The notes beneath the pieces are model-generated. The model was not told where the DNA came from. It did no database searches and saw nothing but the letters and a program-made list of their open reading frames with translations. Made by a program: the position numbers and the translations under genes. 64,000 nucleotides of DNA, from contig JAMPIW010000009.1 in the NCBI GenBank assembly GCA_040183005.1, forward strand, positions 50,876-114,875. The letters run 5' to 3'. Below, piece after piece: positions 3,416 through 62,241 of this stretch. This DNA comes from Gammaproteobacteria bacterium. GTDB taxonomy: Bacteria; Pseudomonadota; Gammaproteobacteria; Ga0077554; Ga007554. Position 1 is the first letter of the stretch. Each line of letters begins with the position of its first letter.

Positions 3416-3471
3416 CGGTGTGGGGGGTTATTAAGTTCCAGGTTCAACGCCATGCTCTTTATATGTTTGAT

Positions 3472-4792
3472 CAGAAGTGTCCGGTAATTTAATTGAATAG
3501 ATTCAATTGGTTATTGTCTTTCTGCATGCTCATTTGCGTCTCCGCATTTTTAAGTAATTGATCGAGTGGCGTTTTCTCGAAAAGAGTCAGGCTCAAAATC
3601 TGTAGGATTGTGTAAAGCGAAGCCTCGGTATTGAGCCGCTTTTTCACGATGGCGACCAAGACGTAAACCGCGATGGCGATCCATATTTGCGTCTTGACTG
3701 CATTCTCGGTGGTGCCATAGAACCGCTTGATTCGAAGATGCTGTTTGATCCACTTGAAGAATAGCTCGACCTGCCAGCGGCAACGATAAAGCTGAGCGAT
3801 GGTCAGCGCAGGCAGGTCGAAGTTGTTGGTCAGAAAGACCAGAAACCTGTCGTGTTCGGCATCGTAGAACTTGATGCGTCGCAGGTGCTGCGGGTAATCC
3901 TTGCTGGCCTTGCGAGCAGTCAATGCAATGGTCTGGTCGCAGCGCAGTCCAGTGGACTTGTCCACGGTGCGAGAGTAGACGCGACGAAAGAGCAGATTGG
4001 ATTTGCCACGGATGACAAAGAACGCCTGTGCTTGATGCAGGGTGAACCAGCGAGCGAAGTCGGTGAAGCCACGATCCATGATGTAAAAGCTGCCGGCTTC
4101 GGGTATCAGGATATCGAGCACATTGACCTCGTGCATCTTGCCATCGCTGATGTGGATGAAGGTTGGAATGTTGCCGCGCAGGTCGAGCAGCGTATGCATC
4201 TTGACGGCAGCTTTGGTGGAGCGGAAGCGTGCCCACGGAAAGACGCTCAAGCACAGGTCGATGGTCGTGGTATCGAGTGCGTAGACCGTCTGTTCCAGTT
4301 CGACCGCAAAGCTGTCGCTGGCGTAAAGCTTTCTGGCGGTCTGGATTAAGCTCATCGCGAAATCCGCGTAGATGCGACAGTCGCGTTGCTCGTTGGCATC
4401 GGCCAGCGTGCTCTTGGCGATGTTGCCTCGTATGCCCAAGTGATAGAGCTTGGCTTGGTGGGCGCGCAGACAGGTTTCGATGTCGCGCAGGCTTTCGCGG
4501 TAAGTCAGCTGCGCGAACGCCATGCAGAGAAATTGATCGAGATGCGAAAAAGTCTTGGTGGGATATTTGGAAGGGTAGCGCTGCACGCAGCGACGGAATG
4601 TGTGAAGGGGCAAATGCTCCATGAGTTGTGCGAACACCAACTGGCCTGAATACATGACGGAAACTCCTGGGGGGAAAGCCCCAGTTTCCCAAAAAATTCA
4701 CGTTCAAGTCGGTGACACCCCTAAACACACACTTTCCTATTCAACATCATCATGTTATATAGCCGTCTTTGCGAAATTGCCGGACACTTCTG
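3472..4792 (-). mobile_element. IS4-family insertion sequence, copy 1 (1321 bp)
   Basis: 17-bp terminal inverted repeats CAGAAGTGTCCGG.../...CCGGACACTTCTG. Flanked by the 9-bp direct repeat ATGTTTGAT at 3463-3471 and 4793-4801. Nearly identical to the copy at 60763-62083. Confidence 0.85.
3489..4655 (-). CDS. IS4-family DDE transposase (DUF4372-type N-terminus)
   Basis: 388-aa ORF with N-terminus MYSGQLVFAQLMEHL...DQFLCMAFAQLTYRESLRDIE typical of IS4/DUF4372 transposases. Identical to the second copy except one residue. Confidence 0.85.
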   Translation of the reverse strand: MYSGQLVFAQLMEHLPLHTFRRCVQRYPSKYPTKTFSHLDQFLCMAFAQLTYRESLRDIETCLRAHQAKLYHLGIRGNIAKSTLADANEQRDCRIYADFAMSLIQTARKLYASDSFAVELEQTVYALDTTTIDLCLSVFPWARFRSTKAAVKMHTLLDLRGNIPTFIHISDGKMHEVNVLDILIPEAGSFYIMDRGFTDFARWFTLHQAQAFFVIRGKSNLLFRRVYSRTVDKSTGLRCDQTIALTARKASKDYPQHLRRIKFYDAEHDRFLVFLTNNFDLPALTIAQLYRCRWQVELFFKWIKQHLRIKRFYGTTENAVKTQIWIAIAVYVLVAIVKKRLNTEASLYTILQILSLTLFEKTPLDQLLKNAETQMSMQKDNNQLNLFN

Positions 4793-13491: not shown

Positions 13492-13500
13492 GGGATATTA

Positions 13501-13765
13501 GAGCCTGTCTGTGAATAAATCATCCCTGCGACGGAGGCCGGTTTTGCGCAGGGCAAGGAAGGCTGAGCGTAGTGTGCTTGTTGCACATGAGTGAAGCGTG
13601 ACGCCGCACTGCGCAAAACCGACCCCGTCCCTTCGGGTTGCGCCCCAAAACACGCCATGCGGCGTTGCTCGCCGCTTATTTGGAACAACCAAACTGCGCA
13701 GCTCGCGCCTTGCCTGGCGTGTTTTGGGGCAGCAACGCAGGGATGATTTATTCACAGATAGGCTC
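13501..13765. repeat. MITE-like element with 30-bp terminal inverted repeats
   Basis: GAGCCTGTCTGTGAATAAATCATCCCTGCG at 13501-13530 is the reverse complement, with one mismatch, of 13736-13765. The two arms enclose about 205 bp of GC-rich noncoding DNA. TTA sits on both flanks. Confidence 0.55.
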
Positions 13766-13905
13766 TTAGTGTAGTATGTGAACCCGAATGCTTCATAAAT
13801 TCGGGTTAGGTCTCTTAAAAATCGCATTCATGCTTTTTTTAAGATCACCCTATATCGAGAGCCTCCGATTTACCCAGAGATCTCTGCCAAAGATTGTTTT
13901 TGTAA

Positions 13906-14814: not shown

Positions 14815-15405
14815 ATGGCTGACAAAAACATATCAACCCAGGAAAAATGGGACACTATCTATAGCAGCGCCGAAAAACAGCCGAAAATTGCGTCGGAGGT
14901 GTTGCGCGAAAACCAGCACCTGTTGCCCGCCTCCGGCAAGGCACTGGACTTTGCCTGCGGTTTGGGCGCAAACGCCCTGCTCCTCGCCGCACAGGGGCTG
15001 GAGACCCATGCCTGGGATATCTCTGAGGTCGCCGTTACGCGCCTGTCGGAAGAAGCCACAGCGCGGGGTTTACACATCCATGCCGAAGCCCGTGACTTGG
15101 TGGCGCAGCCACCGGAGCCCGAGAGCTTCGATGTGATTGTATCCTGCCATTTTCTTGAACGCCCGTTGAACCCGCATCTACTCGCGGCGCTGCGGCCTGG
15201 CGGGCTGCTGTTTTACCAGACCTTCACGCTTGAGAGGGTAGACGGCGCAGGCCCGCAAAACCCCGAATTCCGTCTGCATGAAAATGAGTTGCTGACGATA
15301 TTTCCCGGCCTGCGGGTATTGGTCTACCGTGAAGAAGGGTTGGTGGGTGACACGCAACGCGGCTTCCGCAGCAGGGCGATGCTGGTGGCGCAGAAGCGTT
15401 CATGA
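14815..15405 (+). CDS. Class I SAM-dependent methyltransferase (TehB-like)
   Basis: 196 aa with SAM-binding motif LDFACGLGANALLLA. Confidence 0.7.
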   Translation: MADKNISTQEKWDTIYSSAEKQPKIASEVLRENQHLLPASGKALDFACGLGANALLLAAQGLETHAWDISEVAVTRLSEEATARGLHIHAEARDLVAQPPEPESFDVIVSCHFLERPLNPHLLAALRPGGLLFYQTFTLERVDGAGPQNPEFRLHENELLTIFPGLRVLVYREEGLVGDTQRGFRSRAMLVAQKRS

Positions 15406-15451
15406 AGCAGCGGTCAACGGCGATTTTAGGTTAAACCTAAAAAATTCAGCT

Positions 15452-15583
15452 GTCCACGAAAGTCACGAAAAAACACGAAAATATTCAAATACATATCGCG
15501 ATTTTACTTGCCACCCATCTGGTGAATTACTGAAGCAATCCATGCTTTTGTTTTATTTCGTGAATTTTGTGTTTTTCGTGGAC
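15452..15583. repeat. CACGAAA-iteron inverted-repeat element, copy A (degenerate)
   Basis: Each arm carries three 9-bp CACGAAARN units (left arm GTCCACGAAAGTCACGAAAAAACACGAAAATA; right arm is the imperfect reverse complement). A perfect 10-bp GTCCACGAAA/TTTCGTGGAC stem closes the two ends, with about 70 bp between them. Confidence 0.5.
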
Positions 15584-15600
15584 AAAAAGCGGTTTTAAGG

Positions 15601-16275
15601 TTAAATGCTCTTTAAATCCAGACACCTTGCAATTACTTGGGCATCAAACTCCCGTAGATGAGGGATCACGCCCAGCAGCGGCGCGCTGATGCGTTCGCGC
15701 AGGGCGTCGATATTTTCTTGCAGTTCCGGGAATTCAGGGCATGCACTGTTCGCCACCCAGCCCGCCAGCGGTACGCCCTGCCGGACAATGCTCTCGCAGC
15801 TCAATAAGGCGTGGTTCAGGCAACCCAGGCGCATTCCTACGACCAGGATCACCGGCAGGCCGAGCGCTTGGGCGAGATCGGCGATTGTTTCGCGCTCATT
15901 GAGTGGCACCCGCCAGCCGCCCGCGCCTTCAACCACTACATAATCAATGCGTTGTGCCATATCATCAAAGATTGCCTTGATGGGCGCAATGTCGATGCGC
16001 TGTCCCAGCCGCTTGGCAGCAATATGCGGTGCGATGGGCGCGGCATAGGCATAAGGGTTGATCTGTGCATAGGGCAGGTGAAGGGTGGCGTGACGTTGCA
16101 GGACCAGCGCGTCGCCGTTGCGCAAACCCTCGGCTGTCTCAAGACATCCGGCAGAAACGGGCTTCATCGCGGCCGTAGTGTAACCTTGCGCCGCCAGCGC
16201 CGCCAGCACGCCCGCTGTCACCCAGGTTTTACCCACGTCGGTGTCGGTGCCGGTGATGAAGAAGCCGCGTGTCAT
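15601..16275 (-). CDS. bioD: Dethiobiotin synthetase
   Basis: 224 aa containing GTDTDVGKT (P-loop). Confidence 0.9.
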   Translation of the reverse strand: MTRGFFITGTDTDVGKTWVTAGVLAALAAQGYTTAAMKPVSAGCLETAEGLRNGDALVLQRHATLHLPYAQINPYAYAAPIAPHIAAKRLGQRIDIAPIKAIFDDMAQRIDYVVVEGAGGWRVPLNERETIADLAQALGLPVILVVGMRLGCLNHALLSCESIVRQGVPLAGWVANSACPEFPELQENIDALRERISAPLLGVIPHLREFDAQVIARCLDLKSI

Positions 16276-37305: not shown

Positions 37306-38343
37306 ATGCGCGAAATAGACGGTTCACACGGTGAGGGCGGTGGGCAGTTGATCCGCACGGCGGTGGCCTTGGCTGCGATATCGGGGACAGAGGTCTTGAT
37401 ACGCAACGTCCGCGCAAGACGCGCCAATCCCGGCTTGGCCGCGCAGCATGTGGCCGCCGTGCGGGCGGTAGCCGCGCTGTGCGACGCCCAGGTGAACGGC
37501 CTGCAAGTGGGTTCCCAGGAGCTGACTTTCCGGCCCGGGCGGCTGCATGGCGGCAGCTTTCACTTCGACGTAGGCACGGCAGGAAGTCTTACCCTGGTGC
37601 TGCAGGCTGTGCTCCCAGCGGCAGTGGCCTGCGGTGAGACGGTTCACCTGCGGCTGACTGGCGGCACCGACGTGAAGGCCGCACCACCTCTGGATTATCT
37701 GTGCCATGTATTACTGGCCCTGCTGACACACATGGGGCTGCAAACCCGCGTGATGGTGCTCAGGCGCGGCTATTATCCGCGCGGCGGCGGGGAGATCGAG
37801 ACGGAGATACTCCCAGTGACCGCCCTGCATCCACTGGTGCTGGACACACCCGGCCCTCTCGAAGCGATCCGGGGCATCGCACACATCGCCAATCTGCCGG
37901 GCCACATCGTCGAGCGCATGAAACAGGCGGCGCTGCAGGAAATCATGGGATTCCCTGACGCACACATAGAAGGCCGGGGGCTGGGGCGGGACGATGCCAT
38001 TGGACAAGGCGGGGCCGTGGTGCTGTGGGCAAAGACGGCCCATACCCTATTGGGTGCCGCAACAGTAGCCGAACGCGGCGTGCCCGCCGAACGGCTAGGC
38101 GAGGAAGCAGGACGGGCACTGCGCGCCGAGATCCAGAGTGGCGCAACCCTGGACATTCACACTGCGGACCAGATGCTGATCTATCTGGCCATGGCGCACG
38201 GTCCCTCGCGCTTCCTTGTCCGCACCCTCTCCTCCCATGCGCAGACCACGATATGGCTGCTGGAACAGTTCCTGCCGGTGCGCTTCGTGGTAACGCCAGC
38301 GGGGGAGCTGACACGCGTTGATGTCTATCCCTCGGCCACATAA
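37306..38343 (+). CDS. rtcA: RNA 3'-terminal phosphate cyclase
   Basis: 345 aa containing IDGSHGEGGGQLIRTAVALAAISG. Confidence 0.85.
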   Translation: MREIDGSHGEGGGQLIRTAVALAAISGTEVLIRNVRARRANPGLAAQHVAAVRAVAALCDAQVNGLQVGSQELTFRPGRLHGGSFHFDVGTAGSLTLVLQAVLPAAVACGETVHLRLTGGTDVKAAPPLDYLCHVLLALLTHMGLQTRVMVLRRGYYPRGGGEIETEILPVTALHPLVLDTPGPLEAIRGIAHIANLPGHIVERMKQAALQEIMGFPDAHIEGRGLGRDDAIGQGGAVVLWAKTAHTLLGAATVAERGVPAERLGEEAGRALRAEIQSGATLDIHTADQMLIYLAMAHGPSRFLVRTLSSHAQTTIWLLEQFLPVRFVVTPAGELTRVDVYPSAT

Positions 38344-39267: not shown

Positions 39268-40512
39268 GTGAGGAAAACATTTTTCATGCCCCCATCCCGC
39301 AAGAAACTCCTGGCCGCCACCGTCGTCGTGCTAATCCTCGGGGCGATGGCCTACTATTATCGCCAAAGCCAGGAGATGACCGTGGAAACAACGCCCGTCA
39401 AGCGGGGCGATCTGGTGATCACGGTCACCCCTACGGAAACTGGGACGGTGGATACTGACGCAACAGCTCTTGTGAAAGCTGAAATTGCAGCCCAGGTGAT
39501 CGAGGTCCGGGTGCAGGAAGGGAATGTGGTCAAGACCGGCGACACCCTGATGCGCCTTGATGCGGAGCAGGCACAGGCCAAGCTTAATCTGGCGCGTTCA
39601 GCGCTGGAAGCGACGCACTCCCGCCTCGCCTCGGCGCACATCGCGCTGCAAATGGATAAGGCGCGCACCGCCGCAGCGCTGGCGGAGGCCAAGGCACGGC
39701 TAGGCGACGCAACACAGAAATACGACAAGAAAAAACAGCTCTTCGACAAACGCCTGATCCCTCTCGGCGAGATGGAGACCAGTGCTGCCGAATTGGATGT
39801 GGCGCGAGCTGCGCTCAACACCGCTCAGGCGAACCTCCAGCAAGCAGGCGTACAGGAGCGGCAAGTCAAGACAGCGGAGGCCGATGTCAAGCAGCAGGAA
39901 GCCTCGTTGCGCGTGGCACAGTTAAACCTGGATTACACCACGATCCGCACACCCATGAACGGCACGGTCATGGAAATACCTGTCAAGGCAGGCGAGCTGG
40001 TCCAGCCCGGCACGCCAGTGGCTCGCGTCACACGCATGAGCGGGCTTTATGTAAAGGCGCTGGTGGACGAAGTAGACCTTAGCCGGTTACGGCTCGGGCA
40101 AGCCGCCGAGATCAAATTCGATACCCTGCCCGATAAAAAATTCAGCGCCACCCTATTTGAGATTTCGCCTGGCGTGTCCGTGGAAAAACTCAAGAGCCGC
40201 AACGTCACCGTGAAGCTGCGCCTGACCGATCCGCCCCCCTTCCTCCGCCCCGGCATGTCCGCCGATGTGGAAATCATTGTGAACACGCTCAAGAACATAC
40301 TCTACGCCCCCGCCCAGACGATCATGTCCAAGGATAAGGAACACTACGTCTATGTGATCGAGGGCGGCAAGGTTGCCAAACGCGTCATCACCCTCGGCCA
40401 GTCAAACTGGGATTCCACTGAGGTGCGCAAAGGACTCAGCGAAAACGAGCGGATCATCACCTCGCTCGATCAGGAAGGGTTACAACCCGGCGTGCGCGTG
40501 CGGCAGAAATAA
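39268..40512 (+). CDS. HlyD/MacA-family periplasmic adaptor subunit
   Basis: 414 aa with N-terminal TM segment, coiled-coil and beta-barrel regions. An alternative start at 39286 is possible. Confidence 0.8.
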   Translation: MRKTFFMPPSRKKLLAATVVVLILGAMAYYYRQSQEMTVETTPVKRGDLVITVTPTETGTVDTDATALVKAEIAAQVIEVRVQEGNVVKTGDTLMRLDAEQAQAKLNLARSALEATHSRLASAHIALQMDKARTAAALAEAKARLGDATQKYDKKKQLFDKRLIPLGEMETSAAELDVARAALNTAQANLQQAGVQERQVKTAEADVKQQEASLRVAQLNLDYTTIRTPMNGTVMEIPVKAGELVQPGTPVARVTRMSGLYVKALVDEVDLSRLRLGQAAEIKFDTLPDKKFSATLFEISPGVSVEKLKSRNVTVKLRLTDPPPFLRPGMSADVEIIVNTLKNILYAPAQTIMSKDKEHYVYVIEGGKVAKRVITLGQSNWDSTEVRKGLSENERIITSLDQEGLQPGVRVRQK

Positions 40513-40533
40513 CGCCCAATAAGCAGGTTTGTG

Positions 40534-40689
40534 ATCCACGAAAAACACGAAAGGCACGAAAACATGGGCAAGGTTGTTGGCGCAACAATGCGCCTGGGTT
40601 TGCTAGTCAACTTCAGCTGCTATCCGAAAGCAACCGTCGAACGGATTGTGCTATGGAGCTTTTTCGTGCCTTTCGTGTTTTTCGTGGAC
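40534..40689. repeat. CACGAAA-iteron inverted-repeat element, copy B
   Basis: 29-bp arms ATCCACGAAAAACACGAAAGGCACGAAAA at 40534-40562 and TTTTCGTGCCTTTCGTGTTTTTCGTGGAC at 40661-40689, an inverted repeat with one mismatch. Each arm is three 9-bp CACGAAA units; the spacer is 98 bp. Confidence 0.6.
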
Positions 40690-40718
40690 GGCGCATAACA
40701 TCAAAGAAGAGATTAAAA

Positions 40719-41432
40719 ATGTCCGGCGCCCCCCTCATTCAGCTTAACGATGTCACCAAAGTGTATGTCACGGGAGCGATCCGCTATGAGGTGCTCAAGG
40801 GCATCAGCATCGAGGTGCGCCGAGGCGAATATATCGCCTTAATCGGCGCCTCCGGTTCCGGCAAATCCACCCTGCTGAACATCCTCGGCTGCCTGGATGT
40901 GCCCACCTCTGGCCATTACCGCCTCGAAGGAGAAGAAATATCGGCCAAGAGCGACACGGAGCTGGCGCACATCCGCAACCGCTTTTTCGGCTTCGTGTTC
41001 CAGTCATTCAACTTGTTGGGGCGCTACACCGTCGCCGAGAACGTGGCATTGCCCATGGTCTACCACGGACTGGGCCGCCGTGAACGCCTCGACAAGGCCA
41101 AGGCGCTGCTCGCCCGCGTCGGCCTCGGTGAGTTCACCGGCCATTATCCGTCGGAACTGTCAGGAGGGATGCAGCAGCGCGTGGCCATCGCCCGCGCCTT
41201 GGCCAATAATCCGGCAGTGCTGTTCGCCGACGAACCCACCGGCAACCTGGACAGCAAGACCGGCATGGAGATCATCTCGCTGTTCGAGCAACTCAATGCA
41301 GAGGGCACGACGCTGGTGGTCGTCACCCACGATACGCGGGTGGCACAACACGCGCGGCGCGTGCTCACACTGGCCGATGGGCGTATGCTCACCGACAAGC
41401 AGAATTCAATCACGGAACTGACGGGAGCATAA
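40719..41432 (+). CDS. ABC transporter ATP-binding protein (MacB/LolD-type)
   Basis: Walker A GASGSGKST, signature LSGGMQQR and Walker B LFADEPTGNLD. Start set at MSGAPLIQLN. Confidence 0.85.
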   Translation: MSGAPLIQLNDVTKVYVTGAIRYEVLKGISIEVRRGEYIALIGASGSGKSTLLNILGCLDVPTSGHYRLEGEEISAKSDTELAHIRNRFFGFVFQSFNLLGRYTVAENVALPMVYHGLGRRERLDKAKALLARVGLGEFTGHYPSELSGGMQQRVAIARALANNPAVLFADEPTGNLDSKTGMEIISLFEQLNAEGTTLVVVTHDTRVAQHARRVLTLADGRMLTDKQNSITELTGA

Positions 41433-41437
41433 GCGCC

Positions 41438-42640
41438 ATGAATCCGTTCGAGCACCTGCGCATCGCCTTCGACGCCTTGCTCGCCAACAAGATACGCGCC
41501 TTCCTGACCATGCTCGGTGTCATCATCGGCGTGGCCTCGGTGATCATGCTGGTCGCCATCGGCGAGGGCGCCCAGACATACATCCGCAAGGAATTGATGG
41601 GCATCGGCACCAACCTGCTGATCATCGTCCCCGGCAAAACCGAAACTACCGGCATGGGCCGCATGCCGTCAGGTATACAAAAAATCACTATCGCCGATCT
41701 ACGCGCGCTGGAAAAACGCGCCACCCTGCTTAACGGCCTGAGCGCGGTAGTCGTCAGCAACGCCCCAGTCAAATATCAAAACCGCCTGCGCAATGTCGAG
41801 ATCATCGGCACCGACCAGAATTTTGAACAGGTACGCAATCTGCATGCGGAAATCGGCTCGTTCATCTCCAAGGCCGATGTCGATGCGCAGCGCCGCGTGG
41901 CGGTGATCGGCCGCACTGTCAGGAAGGAGCTGTTCGGCGAGGCCAACCCTCTGGGACGCACCGTCAAGATCGGCGAGACCAAGTTCCGCGTCATCGGCAT
42001 CATGGAAAGCAAAGGCGTCACGCTGGGCATGGACATCGACGATCACGTCTTCATTCCGGTGGAGACCGCCCAGGCAATCTTCGACCAGGATGGCCTGACC
42101 AACATCCTCACCCAGGCCATCAACGAAAACACCGTCGAGCGCGCCAAGGAGCAAATCAAGGCCATCATGATCCAGCGCCACGCAGGCGAAGAAGACTTCA
42201 CCATCATCAGTCAACAGGCCATGCTCTCCACCATGCAGACCATCCTGACCACCTTCACCTATGTCCTGGGCGGCATCGCCAGCATCTCGCTGCTGGTCGG
42301 CGGCATCGGCATCATGAACATCATGCTGGTATCGGTGCGCGAACGCACCCGAGAGATCGGCCTGCGCAAGGCCATCGGCGCCTCGCAACGCGACATCCTG
42401 CTGCAGTTCGTCATCGAGTCCGTAACGCTCTCGGTAATCGGCGGCATCATCGGTATCCTGTTCGGCGCCGGCGTCGCCTACGGCGCCAAGGCTGCCTTCC
42501 CGGTACTGCCCGTCGATGTGAGTGCCTGGTCGGTGGCGCTGGCCTTCACCTTTGCCTTTTTTGTCGGCGCCTTCTTCGGCATTTACCCTGCCATGAAAGC
42601 GGCGCGGCTTAATCCCATTGAGGCGTTAAGATACGAATAA
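41438..42640 (+). CDS. ABC transporter permease (FtsX/MacB-type)
   Basis: 400 aa with MacB_PCD and FtsX-like organisation and four predicted TM segments. Confidence 0.85.
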   Translation: MNPFEHLRIAFDALLANKIRAFLTMLGVIIGVASVIMLVAIGEGAQTYIRKELMGIGTNLLIIVPGKTETTGMGRMPSGIQKITIADLRALEKRATLLNGLSAVVVSNAPVKYQNRLRNVEIIGTDQNFEQVRNLHAEIGSFISKADVDAQRRVAVIGRTVRKELFGEANPLGRTVKIGETKFRVIGIMESKGVTLGMDIDDHVFIPVETAQAIFDQDGLTNILTQAINENTVERAKEQIKAIMIQRHAGEEDFTIISQQAMLSTMQTILTTFTYVLGGIASISLLVGGIGIMNIMLVSVRERTREIGLRKAIGASQRDILLQFVIESVTLSVIGGIIGILFGAGVAYGAKAAFPVLPVDVSAWSVALAFTFAFFVGAFFGIYPAMKAARLNPIEALRYE

Positions 42641-60585: not shown

Positions 60586-60762
60586 GACATGAACTCCTCA
60601 TTTTAGTTTAAGGCCGCGCACGCAGCATTCATGTATACCTGTGTATCCTGGCAAAGGATGGCGATTTTGTGTTACGGGGCCATAACGGAATGATGAATTT
60701 TTCTTTACAGCGCGGTGTGACGTTGGACTAAACACACTGGAGTAAATGTTAATATTCTGATT

Positions 60763-62083
60763 CAGAAGTGTCCGGTAATTTAATTGAATAGATTCAATTG
60801 GTTATTGTCTTTCTGCATGCTCATTTGCGTCTCCGCATTTTTAAGTAATTGATCGAGTGGCGTTTTCTCGAAAAGAGTCAGGCTCAAAATCTGTAGGATT
60901 GTGTAAAGCGAAGCCTCGGTATTGAGCCGCTTTTTCACGATGGCGACCACGACGTAAACCGCGATGGCGATCCATATTTGCGTCTTGACTGCATTCTCGG
61001 TGGTGCCATAGAACCGCTTGATTCGAAGATGCTGTTTGATCCACTTGAAGAATAGCTCGACCTGCCAGCGGCAACGATAAAGCTGAGCGATGGTCAGCGC
61101 AGGCAGGTCGAAGTTGTTGGTCAGAAAGACCAGAAACCTGTCGTGTTCGGCATCGTAGAACTTGATGCGTCGCAGGTGCTGCGGGTAATCCTTGCTGGCC
61201 TTGCGAGCAGTCAATGCAATGGTCTGGTCGCAGCGCAGTCCAGTGGACTTGTCCACGGTGCGAGAGTAGACGCGACGAAAGAGCAGATTGGATTTGCCAC
61301 GGATGACAAAGAACGCCTGTGCTTGATGCAGGGTGAACCAGCGAGCGAAGTCGGTGAAGCCACGATCCATGATGTAAAAGCTGCCGGCTTCGGGTATCAG
61401 GATATCGAGCACATTGACCTCGTGCATCTTGCCATCGCTGATGTGGATGAAGGTTGGAATGTTGCCGCGCAGGTCGAGCAGCGTATGCATCTTGACGGCA
61501 GCTTTGGTGGAGCGGAAGCGTGCCCACGGAAAGACGCTCAAGCACAGGTCGATGGTCGTGGTATCGAGTGCGTAGACCGTCTGTTCCAGTTCGACCGCAA
61601 AGCTGTCGCTGGCGTAAAGCTTTCTGGCGGTCTGGATTAAGCTCATCGCGAAATCCGCGTAGATGCGACAGTCGCGTTGCTCGTTGGCATCGGCCAGCGT
61701 GCTCTTGGCGATGTTGCCTCGTATGCCCAAGTGATAGAGCTTGGCTTGGTGGGCGCGCAGACAGGTTTCGATGTCGCGCAGGCTTTCGCGGTAAGTCAGC
61801 TGCGCGAACGCCATGCAGAGAAATTGATCGAGATGCGAAAAAGTCTTGGTGGGATATTTGGAAGGGTAGCGCTGCACGCAGCGACGGAATGTGTGAAGGG
61901 GCAAATGCTCCATGAGTTGTGCGAACACCAACTGGCCTGAATACATGACGGAAACTCCTGGGGGGAAAGCCCCAGTTTCCCAAAAAATTCACGTTCAAGT
62001 CGGTGACACCCCTAAACACACACTTTCCTATTCAACATCATCATGTTATATAGCCGTCTTTGCGAAATTGCCGGACACTTCTG
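60763..62083 (-). mobile_element. IS4-family insertion sequence, copy 2 (1321 bp)
   Basis: Same TIRs as copy 1. One SNP relative to copy 1 (3659 A versus 60950 C). Flanked by the 9-bp direct repeat ATTCTGATT at 60754-60762 and 62084-62092. Confidence 0.85.
60780..61946 (-). CDS. IS4-family DDE transposase (copy 2)
   Basis: 388 aa, identical to copy 1 except L to V at one position. Confidence 0.85.
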   Translation of the reverse strand: MYSGQLVFAQLMEHLPLHTFRRCVQRYPSKYPTKTFSHLDQFLCMAFAQLTYRESLRDIETCLRAHQAKLYHLGIRGNIAKSTLADANEQRDCRIYADFAMSLIQTARKLYASDSFAVELEQTVYALDTTTIDLCLSVFPWARFRSTKAAVKMHTLLDLRGNIPTFIHISDGKMHEVNVLDILIPEAGSFYIMDRGFTDFARWFTLHQAQAFFVIRGKSNLLFRRVYSRTVDKSTGLRCDQTIALTARKASKDYPQHLRRIKFYDAEHDRFLVFLTNNFDLPALTIAQLYRCRWQVELFFKWIKQHLRIKRFYGTTENAVKTQIWIAIAVYVVVAIVKKRLNTEASLYTILQILSLTLFEKTPLDQLLKNAETQMSMQKDNNQLNLFN

Positions 62084-62241
62084 ATTCTGATTTTTTTTGA
62101 CAACGAACCATCCCGGCAATTATCGTACCGGCTGCTCATTGATGGATGATCCTGAAAACGGCAGGGAGCATCCCAATACACTATTTCTTCAGATAACCAC
62201 CGGCGAGGGATCGTCTTTATGAAAAAGACAGAAAAAATCCC

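Follow-up and report, generated by a model that had tools for sequence, protein, structure and literature searches.

Gene-less inverted-repeat insertions, one of them in a gammaproteobacterial exporter operon, as probable derivatives of a GxxExxY nuclease cassette

A stretch of 64,000 nucleotides (nt) from contig JAMPIW010000009.1 of the Gammaproteobacteria bacterium assembly GCA_040183005.1 (positions 50,876 to 114,875), hereafter called the window, contains two copies of an element bounded by inverted arrays of the 9-nt unit CACGAAA-NN. Copy A is located in an exporter operon, and the genes around it encode a MacA/HlyD-type adaptor, a MacB-type ABC ATPase, and an FtsX-type permease. Copy B is located between the convergent genes of a methyltransferase and BioD. 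Both copies are lineage-specific insertions and, very probably, gene-less derivatives of a small mobile cassette encoding a protein of the GxxExxY family. A nucleotide identity of ~68% to a Methylobacter MAG (metagenome-assembled genome), together with close homologues labelled "Gammaproteobacteria bacterium", would tentatively place the source as a Methylococcales-like gammaproteobacterium. Other loci are referred to by L numbers.

Architecture of the two copies

The arms of copy A are 28 nt long, 100% complementary, and separated by 98 nt (Table 1). Each contains three CACGAAA heptamers with a period of 9 nt, positioned at 40537, 40546, and 40555 in the left arm and, on the reverse strand, at 40662, 40671, and 40680 in the right arm. 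Copy B (15452-15583) is built in the same way, except that its units are degenerate and its core measures 75 nt. The two-unit pattern CACGAAANNCACGAAA, with at most one mismatch, occurs seven times in the window, always within copies A and B, whereas 0.03 occurrences are expected. A previous sequence-only reading of the window described the repeat at 40534-40689 as two 29-bp arms forming an almost perfect inverted repeat. The inverted arms of three 9-nt units and the 98-nt spacer stand, whereas the arms are 28 nt long and their complementarity is complete. The same reading recognized the degenerate copy with the same architecture between convergent genes, and its statement that the element fills the 206-nt gap between the adaptor and ATPase genes agrees with the comparison with empty sites described below.

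Copies A and B are absent from the corresponding sites of relatives

In four orthologous exporter operons, with adaptors that are 93, 73, 71, and 67% identical to that of the window, the stop codon of the adaptor gene is separated from the start codon of the ATPase gene by 3, 0, 1, and 0 nt, respectively. The corresponding gap in the window is 206 nt, and 203 of these are inserted DNA: the empty site reads cagaaaTAA-AAA-ATGtcc and the filled site cagaaaTAA-[203 nt]-AAA-ATGtcc. The insert is dispensable, because the relatives without it keep the same operon. Two relatives with the synteny of site B (L211 and L212, BioD 92% identical), in which bioD is convergent with the same 196-aa methyltransferase gene, contain only the 8 nt AGCAGCGG between the two stop codons, compared to 195 nt in the window. 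Insertion B took the place of the last two codons of bioD (KSISS* to KSI*) and provides a new TAA stop codon. Copies A and B are lineage-specific insertions missing from close relatives, in which the neighboring proteins are 92-93% identical. Before insertion, sites A and B contained no arms at all.

The relative with the 93% identical adaptor (L204) and contig L045 belong to the same assembly, the metagenome-assembled genome (MAG) CAMTYI01. L045 carries A-type and B-type copies at loci unrelated to those in the window, although site A of CAMTYI01 is empty. Positions 15436-15602 of copy B are 94% identical over 167 nt to positions 7246-7412 of L045, on the opposite strand and between non-homologous flanks. 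Copy A is 76% identical to the A-type copy of L045, and the deletion junctions of the two are alike. The related copies at unrelated loci in CAMTYI01, together with the empty sites A and B in relatives, indicate that gene-less copies of both types moved recently. Since the whole catalytic core of the encoded protein is missing from copy A, the gene-less copies must have been mobilized in trans.

The insertions are positioned at gene boundaries: just past a stop codon in the case of copy A and of L092, where the element lies between the genes of pyruvate dehydrogenase E1b and E2; in the last bioD codons in the case of copy B; and, in L111, at the junction of an ABC ATPase gene with its permease gene. 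The target sites, namely the adaptor-ATPase junction, the 3' end of bioD, the E1b-E2 junction, and a site downstream of hrcA, do not have a common sequence. The only public contig that encodes an identical ATPase, L001 (Logan SRR19360587), corresponds to positions 40662-42311 of the window and starts inside the right arm of copy A, which is consistent with a repeat-induced assembly break. Many members of the GxxExxY family are found on contigs of 0.5-2 kb, and short-read assembly seems to be interrupted at the arms.

The core of copy A is a remnant of a GxxExxY gene

In L027 and L092, the same arms surround complete open reading frames (ORFs) of ~125 aa, which end in ...GLLANFGSHPKAIVERIIL and match TIGR04256 "GxxExxY" and PF13366 PDDEXK_3 with E ~1e-40. 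The intact cassette is ~450 bp long and is composed of a left array of three CACGAAA-NN units, one GxxExxY gene of ~125 aa, and the same array inverted on the right. A local hidden Markov model (HMM) built from six intact arm-bracketed GxxExxY genes has a sole match in the window, at 40513-40695, with E = 3.6e-11 and covering profile positions 89-124 of 124. An hmmscan of the 55-aa translation of the core against Pfam and NCBIfam gave no match, as the fragment is too short. The DNA of the core aligns with the last ~100 nt of the intact genes of L164 and L064, which have the same arms as the window. The left arm of copy A is identical to the left arms of these two cassettes and of the L045 copy. 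The C-terminus of the remnant, CYPKATVERIVL, is identical to those of L164, L186, and L133, which are members of the GTC/CACGAAA clade. The tail GACRRYGCRTAACATCA of insertion A is common to L099, L116, L164, and L133.

Copy A retains the ATG beside the left arm and the last ~24-36 codons of the gene, whereas codons ~3-97 are gone. The catalytic core (E, D, ExK, QxxxY) is not present, and the remnant corresponds to the C-terminal strands only. The stop codon is mutated, with CTA TGG in place of the CTA TAA or CTC TGA of intact genes. The remnant is a pseudogene fragment and not a gene. Because the core aligns with the 3' end of the gene, the arms are identical, and codons ~3-97 are missing, copy A is derived from a GxxExxY cassette by internal deletion. 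In an unbiased search, the core still resembled the 3' ends of GxxExxY genes, and the insert is not found in all relatives.

Table 1. Positions of insertions A and B and of their parts in the window.
Feature	Positions	Strand	Description
Insertion A, whole	40513..40715	+	203 nt, between adaptor stop TAA (40510-40512) and ATPase ATG (40719)
Insertion A, left tail	40513..40534	+	CGCCCAATAAGCAGGTTTGTGA; external to arms; missing from empty sites; unconserved in related copies
Copy A, left arm	40535..40562	+	TC-CACGAAA-AA-CACGAAA-GG-CACGAAA-A; three 9-nt units
Copy A, core	40563..40660	+	98 nt; ATG GGC beside left arm, then 3' end of GxxExxY gene
GxxExxY/PF13366 C-terminal remnant	40582..40653	+	ATMRLGLLVNFSCYPKATVERIVL; frame +1; local HMM match and DNA alignment
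Copy A, right arm	40661..40688	+	T-TTTCGTG-CC-TTTCGTG-TT-TTTCGTG-GA
Insertion A, right tail	40689..40715	+	C-GGCGCATAACATCA (conserved family tail), then GAAGAG (40706-40711); inserted DNA
Insertion B, whole	15419..15601	+	~183 nt, between methyltransferase gene (stop 15403-15405) and bioD (minus strand, stop 15601-15603)
Copy B, left arm	15452..15480	+	GTC-CACGAAA-GT-CACGAAA-AAA-CACGAAA; one unit at 10-nt spacing
Copy B, core	15481..15555	+	75 nt; no detectable coding remnant
Copy B, right arm	15556..15583	+	TTTCGTG-AA-TTTTGTG-TT-TTTCGTG-GAC
Insertion B, right tail	15584..15601	+	AAAAAGCGGTTTTAAGGT; tail type common to L045, L083, and L053

GxxExxY genes and their arms form one inherited unit

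The GxxExxY protein is confidently predicted to have a Cas4/RecB-like PD-(D/E)XK nuclease fold (AlphaFold2 model with a predicted local distance difference test score of 93.7). The residues E31, D71, E81-x-K83, and Q95-xxx-Y99 are invariant. Clustered at 50% identity, the family comprises 22,094 clusters with E <= 1e-3 and 7,257 with E <= 1e-10, and 8000 of the 8000 scored family candidates passed.

A scan of public genomes with the three-unit arm identified at least 120 loci, which span more than ten phyla. Arms are found in Verrucomicrobiota, Planctomycetota, Acidobacteriota, Methylococcales, Gallionellaceae, Spirochaetia, Kiritimatiellae, Lentisphaeria, Desulfobacterales, Chloroflexota, Armatimonadota, Bacteroidota, and others. 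Among the complete genomes with arms are Methylomicrobium lacus NZ_CP169217 (L099), OW818642 (L027), and Methylotuvimicrobium buryatense 5G (L016). To avoid circularity, 81 GxxExxY loci were gathered by protein similarity alone. Nearly all of them contain arrays of 9-nt units, in plus orientation upstream of the gene and in minus orientation downstream. According to a strict criterion, which requires an array of three units with 9-nt periodicity within 150 nt downstream or 90 nt upstream, arrays are present downstream of 63 and upstream of 45 of 78 genes, compared to two of 205 control segments. At least one arm is near the gene in 73 of 74 cases, and the modal architecture is plus arm, gene, minus arm. 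The units occur in the variants CACGAAA, CACGGAA, CGCGAAA, CACAGAA, and CACTGAA, and the two arms of a gene agree. The unit type (CACGAAA, CACGGAA, or CGCGAAA) and the outer triplet (GTC..GAC or AAC..GTT) track the neighbor-joining tree of the proteins, and the cassette of arms and gene is thus shown to be inherited as one unit.

Forty-four of the 63 ORFs bracketed by arms belong to the GxxExxY family and one to DUF4926; the others are either spurious or belong to the host and lie between neighboring elements, and the existence of further cargo genes was rejected. The DUF4926 ORF (79 aa, weak Pfam match with E = 3.8e-5) is positioned on the opposite strand between the CACGAAA arms of L024 (5093-5433) and is the sole cargo observed other than GxxExxY. 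Gene-less arm pairs are many, and gene-bearing pairs are fewer. Carriage by phages was rejected as a major route of spread, because the arms are rare on IMG/VR contigs (15 pairs and one cassette in 754 kb of matched loci).

In the clade of the window, the arms form the 5' and 3' untranslated regions of the gene, whereas in other lineages they are translated. The sequence ATGAAC-CACGAAA... is read as M-N-(H-E-K)n. Translation of the right arm in the CGCGAAA clade yields ...NFRDFRG*, with the stop codon in GGTTAA. Database proteins, among them P0139 and P0140, show such arm-derived extensions, which are spurious and rich in His/Glu/Lys or Phe/Val. Since conservation of the arms does not depend on whether they are translated, the constraint on them acts on the nucleic acid.

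Several further arrangements of the units were observed. A hairpin of CACGGAA units lies directly 3' of the intact CACGAAA-type cassette of L064 (4604-4800), and thus both unit types occur in one Gallionella genome. Head-to-tail CACGAAA arrays on one strand, rather than inverted pairs, are present in L084 (3783-3955), L010 (5415-5625), L062 (105-414), and L023 (669-1212); their spacings are 37, ~95, and ~260 nt, and their sources include a Prevotellaceae MAG, an uncultured gut bacterium (UMGS1058), and a Cloacimonadota MAG. The interiors of the arm pairs L085 (278-600) and L113 (3192-3475) contain a second widespread repeat with the translations PKLELGNE, AWERG, and SLGTS, which looks like one repeat family nested in another. 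Many cassettes in metagenome loci (L132, L142, L150, L157, L175, L184, and L195) are followed within ~20 nt by ORFs starting with MEKMKMHSPNLT... or MNKIDQKDINNAAWAA..., and at one metagenome locus an HsdS-like ORF of 384 aa is positioned between cassettes. Inspection by eye of the N-termini of the downstream ORFs suggests that cassettes often reside in restriction-modification operons.

Folding of the arms and consequences for the exporter operon

The sequence-only reading proposed that the element could be a large mRNA stem-loop that sets differential expression within the operon. Both copies fold far better than shuffled sequences: the RNA fold of copy A has an energy of -79.7 kcal/mol (z -5.4; z -6.3 for the DNA fold), and that of copy B has an energy of -49.2 kcal/mol (z -4.9). 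The right tail of insertion A is unpaired in the minimum free energy fold. Within arm pairs, near-invariance or complementarity is seen at the heptamers and at the three outer positions. The NN spacers covary partially, being complementary in 40-72% of cases compared to 26-55% in shuffles; strong covariation, which had been suggested by eye, was dropped after this quantification. Across 50 stems whose transcriptional orientation is known, Watson-Crick pairs account for 85% of positions, and the mismatches include 48 G·U and 58 A·C (p = 0.38). Because there is no preference for G·U among the mismatches, selection on a sense-strand RNA helix is disfavored, and RNA-level selection was rejected as the force that conserves the arms. 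The pattern fits a strand-symmetric constraint at the level of DNA, with the ends recognized as DNA or the arms copied from each other. The proposed stem-loop is plausible as a side effect in the exporter operon but not as the reason for the conservation of the element.

No terminator-like or sigma-70-like site is present in copy A or B. The stems are followed by GACGGCG and GACAAAAAG and not by a T-tract. A scan of the whole window against Rfam gave no match at the gathering threshold.

The ancestral junction TAAAAAATG implies translational coupling of the adaptor and ATPase genes. As judged from the sequence, insert A would replace this coupled junction with 206 nt that form a perfect 28-bp stem in the mRNA, and the stem may alter the ratio of adaptor to ATPase. 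The Shine-Dalgarno-like GAAGAG, which is part of the inserted DNA and lies 7 nt 5' of the ATPase ATG, would keep the downstream gene translatable. In the AAC..GTT lineage, a conserved tail, GTTAAAAA, lies past the right arm, and in 38 of 66 cases the next ORF on the same strand begins 15-24 nt beyond the arm. These observations suggest that, in general, the structure or the placement of the cassette avoids silencing of the downstream gene.

The longest ORF of the ATPase gene (40653-41432) begins with an ATG within the element, at 40653, and is read in frame through the right arm (MELFRAFRVFRGRRITSKKRLK-MSGAP...). Because the orthologues start at the equivalent of 40719, the 22-aa extension is an annotation trap. 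The shortening of bioD by two codons is another.

A mobile nuclease cassette and alternative explanations

Taken together with the empty sites and the remnant in copy A, the distribution of the arms makes it very probable that copies A and B are non-autonomous, MITE-like (miniature inverted-repeat transposable element) derivatives of a small mobile GxxExxY nuclease cassette. The suggestion that the repeat is a REP/MITE-like element is borne out by the lineage-specific insertions, the non-orthologous copies in another genome, and the wide occurrence of the arms. It is not confined to the two sites in the window, as its conservation extends far beyond them, nor does it resolve into an ordinary terminator hairpin, since there is no T-tract. 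In the mechanism proposed here, the arms would be cis-acting ends recognized as DNA by the cassette's own nuclease, and nuclease produced from an intact cassette elsewhere in the genome would mobilize the gene-less copies in trans. This mechanism, which is analogous to that of RAYTs and REPINs (PMC3337134, PMC8266576), is quite possible, although somewhat short of probable. The "protein-binding site array" of the sequence-only reading could then possibly correspond to the putative recognition ends of the element rather than to the operator of a host regulator. It is somewhat less likely, but possible, that GxxExxY cassettes represent an unrecognized class of minimal autonomous mobile element: ~450 bp in length, with a single 125-aa Cas4/RecB-like nuclease as the only protein and terminal inverted arrays of 9-bp units as its recognition ends. 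Such elements would give rise to gene-less copies in REPIN-like swarms and would bring start, stop, and Shine-Dalgarno signals of their own that allow residence in operons with little polarity.

Several observations weigh against the mobile-cassette interpretation or limit its scope. To our knowledge, there is no precedent for a 125-aa Cas4-like nuclease acting as the sole transposase. No intact cassette is present in the 64-kb window, which is the only part of the source genome covered. Most arm pairs (61 in the first 120 loci) hold 8-300 nt of unrelated non-coding DNA with no trace of a gene and, because of this, not all arm pairs can be simple deletion derivatives. The ends of the element are not sharply defined, as the tails outside the arms vary by subfamily. 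A 5-bp duplication (AATAA/ATTAA, with one mismatch) is possible at site A, site B shows a small replacement instead of a duplication, and target-site duplications are not in excess across 94 arm pairs (20 observed, 22.1 expected). TTAAA/TTAAA in copy B and TGAT in L045 were dropped as candidate duplications, as TTAAA is not in the empty site B and the general test was negative. The sample gathered by protein similarity is composed of relatives 60-90% identical to one query, compared to the 22,094 clusters of the family. A sequence search of the PDB found no homologue, and libraries of defense and phage proteins gave marginal matches only, none of them meaningful. In a 2012 survey of PD-(D/E)XK proteins, the function of the family was listed as "Unknown" and multiple transfers were noted (PMC3424549). 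The family has hardly any literature, and no description of GxxExxY genes between iterated inverted arrays was found in the searchable literature, which largely excludes subscription journals.

The main alternative is that an unrelated transposase, acting in trans, moves a mobile insertion cassette or MITE of which the arms are the ends, with GxxExxY as the commonest passenger, perhaps functioning in defense or addiction. This is rather unlikely. It would account for the absence of a gene from most arm pairs, for the DUF4926 ORF in place of the nuclease gene in L024, and for the many cassettes that seem, from the N-termini of downstream ORFs, to reside in restriction-modification-like operons, and a 125-aa Cas4-like nuclease is not a known transposase. 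However, GxxExxY is the only recurrent cargo across more than ten phyla (44 of 63 bracketed ORFs), and the arm unit type tracks the GxxExxY phylogeny, which is not obviously expected of a promiscuous passenger. Furthermore, no transposase-like ORF was found between widely spaced arms in ~290 loci, and a parent insertion sequence (IS) with a transposase was rejected as a candidate on the same loci. An improbable alternative is that GxxExxY is a free-standing homing endonuclease, with arm-loop-arm hairpins as its sites, that spreads by double-strand-break repair through the 25-28-bp homology of the arms. Sites A and B were free of arms before insertion, and therefore the arms come with the element and neither insertion can be explained by homing into existing hairpins; in addition, the target sites have no sequence in common, and gene-less copies moved as well.

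It is very improbable that the inverted arrays are conserved as a long mRNA stem, serving as an RNase III site or exonuclease barrier, that tunes the expression of operons. The stable 28-bp stem in the operon transcript (-79.7 kcal/mol, z -5.4) and the typical placement of insertions within operons, in the orientation of the downstream gene and 15-24 nt before its start, agree with such a role, and co-transcribed MITEs such as Correia and ERIC elements, which are processed by RNase III, provide a precedent. However, G·U mismatches in the sense orientation are not in excess over A·C, the spacer dinucleotides covary only in part, Rfam gave no match, and the genes on either side of copy B are convergent. 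In close relatives, the same exporter operon lacks the insert, which therefore is not needed for the function of the operon. The remaining explanations are effectively refuted: that the repeat is a host operator or iteron array bound by a replication protein or regulator, that it is an ordinary intrinsic terminator, or that it arose by chance. Short iterated units in inverted arrays do look operator-like, but such arms are present at hundreds of unrelated loci across many phyla, are missing from the orthologous sites A and B, and have no adjacent regulator or rep gene. A chance repeat is contradicted by the seven occurrences of the unit pattern against 0.03 expected, and a terminator by the lack of a T-tract terminator in either copy. 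Neither copy contains a sigma-70-like promoter.

The interpretation of copies A and B as derivatives of a nuclease cassette explains the odd 206-nt gap in the exporter operon as a recent insertion and flags the two annotation traps. It also ties a very large family with a function listed as "Unknown" (PF13366/TIGR04256) to a conserved DNA architecture and to insertion polymorphism. The role of GxxExxY becomes testable through the binding or cutting of 3x CACGAAANN arrays and the mobilization of mini-cassettes. If true, the minimal-mobile-element interpretation would give a lifestyle to ~22,000 protein clusters with a function listed as "unknown", and the system could prove to be a minimal mobile element of a new class.

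Comparison with known mobile elements

One parallel is with REPINs and RAYTs, in which repetitive extragenic palindromes (REPs) are associated with an HUH-Y1 transposase-like gene flanked by inverted REPs (REPtrons; PMC3337134, PMC8266576, PMC3733652). Both systems include many short gene-less inverted-repeat units and few copies that bracket one small nuclease-type gene, the type of repeat co-varies with the protein lineage, and the sites are intergenic or in operons. The likeness is an analogy and not membership. GxxExxY has a PD-(D/E)XK fold (Cas4/RecB-like, PF13366/TIGR04256), whereas RAYTs are IS200/IS605-like HUH-Y1 proteins. The CACGAAA-NN arms are tandem and not self-complementary, in contrast to REPs, which are imperfect palindromes of 20-40 nt with a GTAG or CGTC tag. 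The CACGAAA unit is common to more than ten phyla, whereas REPs are lineage-specific.

Like MITEs, the elements are small (203 and ~183 nt), non-coding, and bounded by terminal inverted repeats, which are perfect in copy A and degenerate in copy B. Copy A is derived from a longer coding element with the arms of L064 and L164, and copy B has no detectable remnant. Two copies are present in 64 kb, both sites are empty in relatives, and homologues occur elsewhere in L045. A parent with a recognized transposase is lacking, as the only gene of the cassette encodes a PD-(D/E)XK nuclease-fold protein. The element is thus a MITE in its behavior and the system is REPIN/RAYT-like, but defining features of both families are absent. 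The MITEs that reside in operons (Correia/NEMIS of Neisseria, ERIC/IRU of enterobacteria, and RUP/BOX) are similarly 100-200 nt long, non-coding, bounded by long terminal inverted repeats, and positioned between the genes of operons; they form long RNA stems and differ in presence among relatives. Their sequences are unrelated to those of copies A and B. The parent in the present case is a ~450-bp nuclease-gene cassette rather than an IS that encodes a DDE transposase, the arms consist of iterated 9-nt units, and there is no consistent duplication of TA or another target.

Mobile insertion cassettes and cargo-carrying MITEs also have IS-like inverted ends around a gene that is not a transposase. 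However, the ends of mobile insertion cassettes are shared with a known IS that supplies the transposase, whereas no such IS was found for the CACGAAA arms in ~290 loci, and the cargo is dominated by one family. Free-standing homing endonuclease genes of the PD-(D/E)XK type, such as that of I-Ssp6803I, are likewise very small selfish nuclease genes with a restriction-endonuclease-like fold. Unlike them, the cassettes have heterogeneous sites that were free of arms before insertion, their gene-less derivatives move, and the iterated arrays have no counterpart. In comparison to Cas4 and RecB nucleases, GxxExxY is half the size and has a different cysteine pattern, no CRISPR or helicase context, and no sequence match to a PDB chain.

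The integron attC, iteron, and terminator readings were rejected on the features that define membership of these groups. Integron attC cassettes similarly combine a small promoterless ORF with an imperfect palindrome and are often placed so that downstream genes stay expressed. However, the arms of the GxxExxY cassettes are on both sides of the ORF and not only on its 3' side, and the insertions are dispersed rather than arrayed at attI. No GTTRRRY core was seen, as the tails read GTTAAAAA or GAC.... Plasmid iterons are direct repeats of 17-22 bp, whereas the 9-nt units form inverted arrays in a chromosomal operon with no rep gene nearby. Neither element contains the short GC-rich hairpin and T-tract of an intrinsic terminator.

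Other features of the window

A gene for RtcA, the RNA 3'-terminal phosphate cyclase (TIGR03399, E = 2.6e-121), is located at 37306-38343, upstream of the exporter operon. The window also contains repeats distinct from copies A and B. A direct repeat of 300 nt is present at 3458-3757 and 60749-61048, 57 kb apart and with 98% identity. The second of these opens a segment of ~1.35 kb bounded by 31-nt inverted repeats (60751-60781 and 62065-62095), and the segment and the copy at 3458 are probably an IS element and its partial copy. Unrelated to the CACGAAA arms is a MITE-like palindromic element at 13500-13766, an inverted repeat of 31 nt that is 97% complementary and has 205 nt between its arms. 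A third palindromic element, of another sequence, is a 34-nt inverted repeat at 49190-49387 that is 88% complementary and has 130 nt between its arms. The segment 55988-56092 contains a tandem duplication of 51 nt with 88% identity and a spacing of 54 nt.

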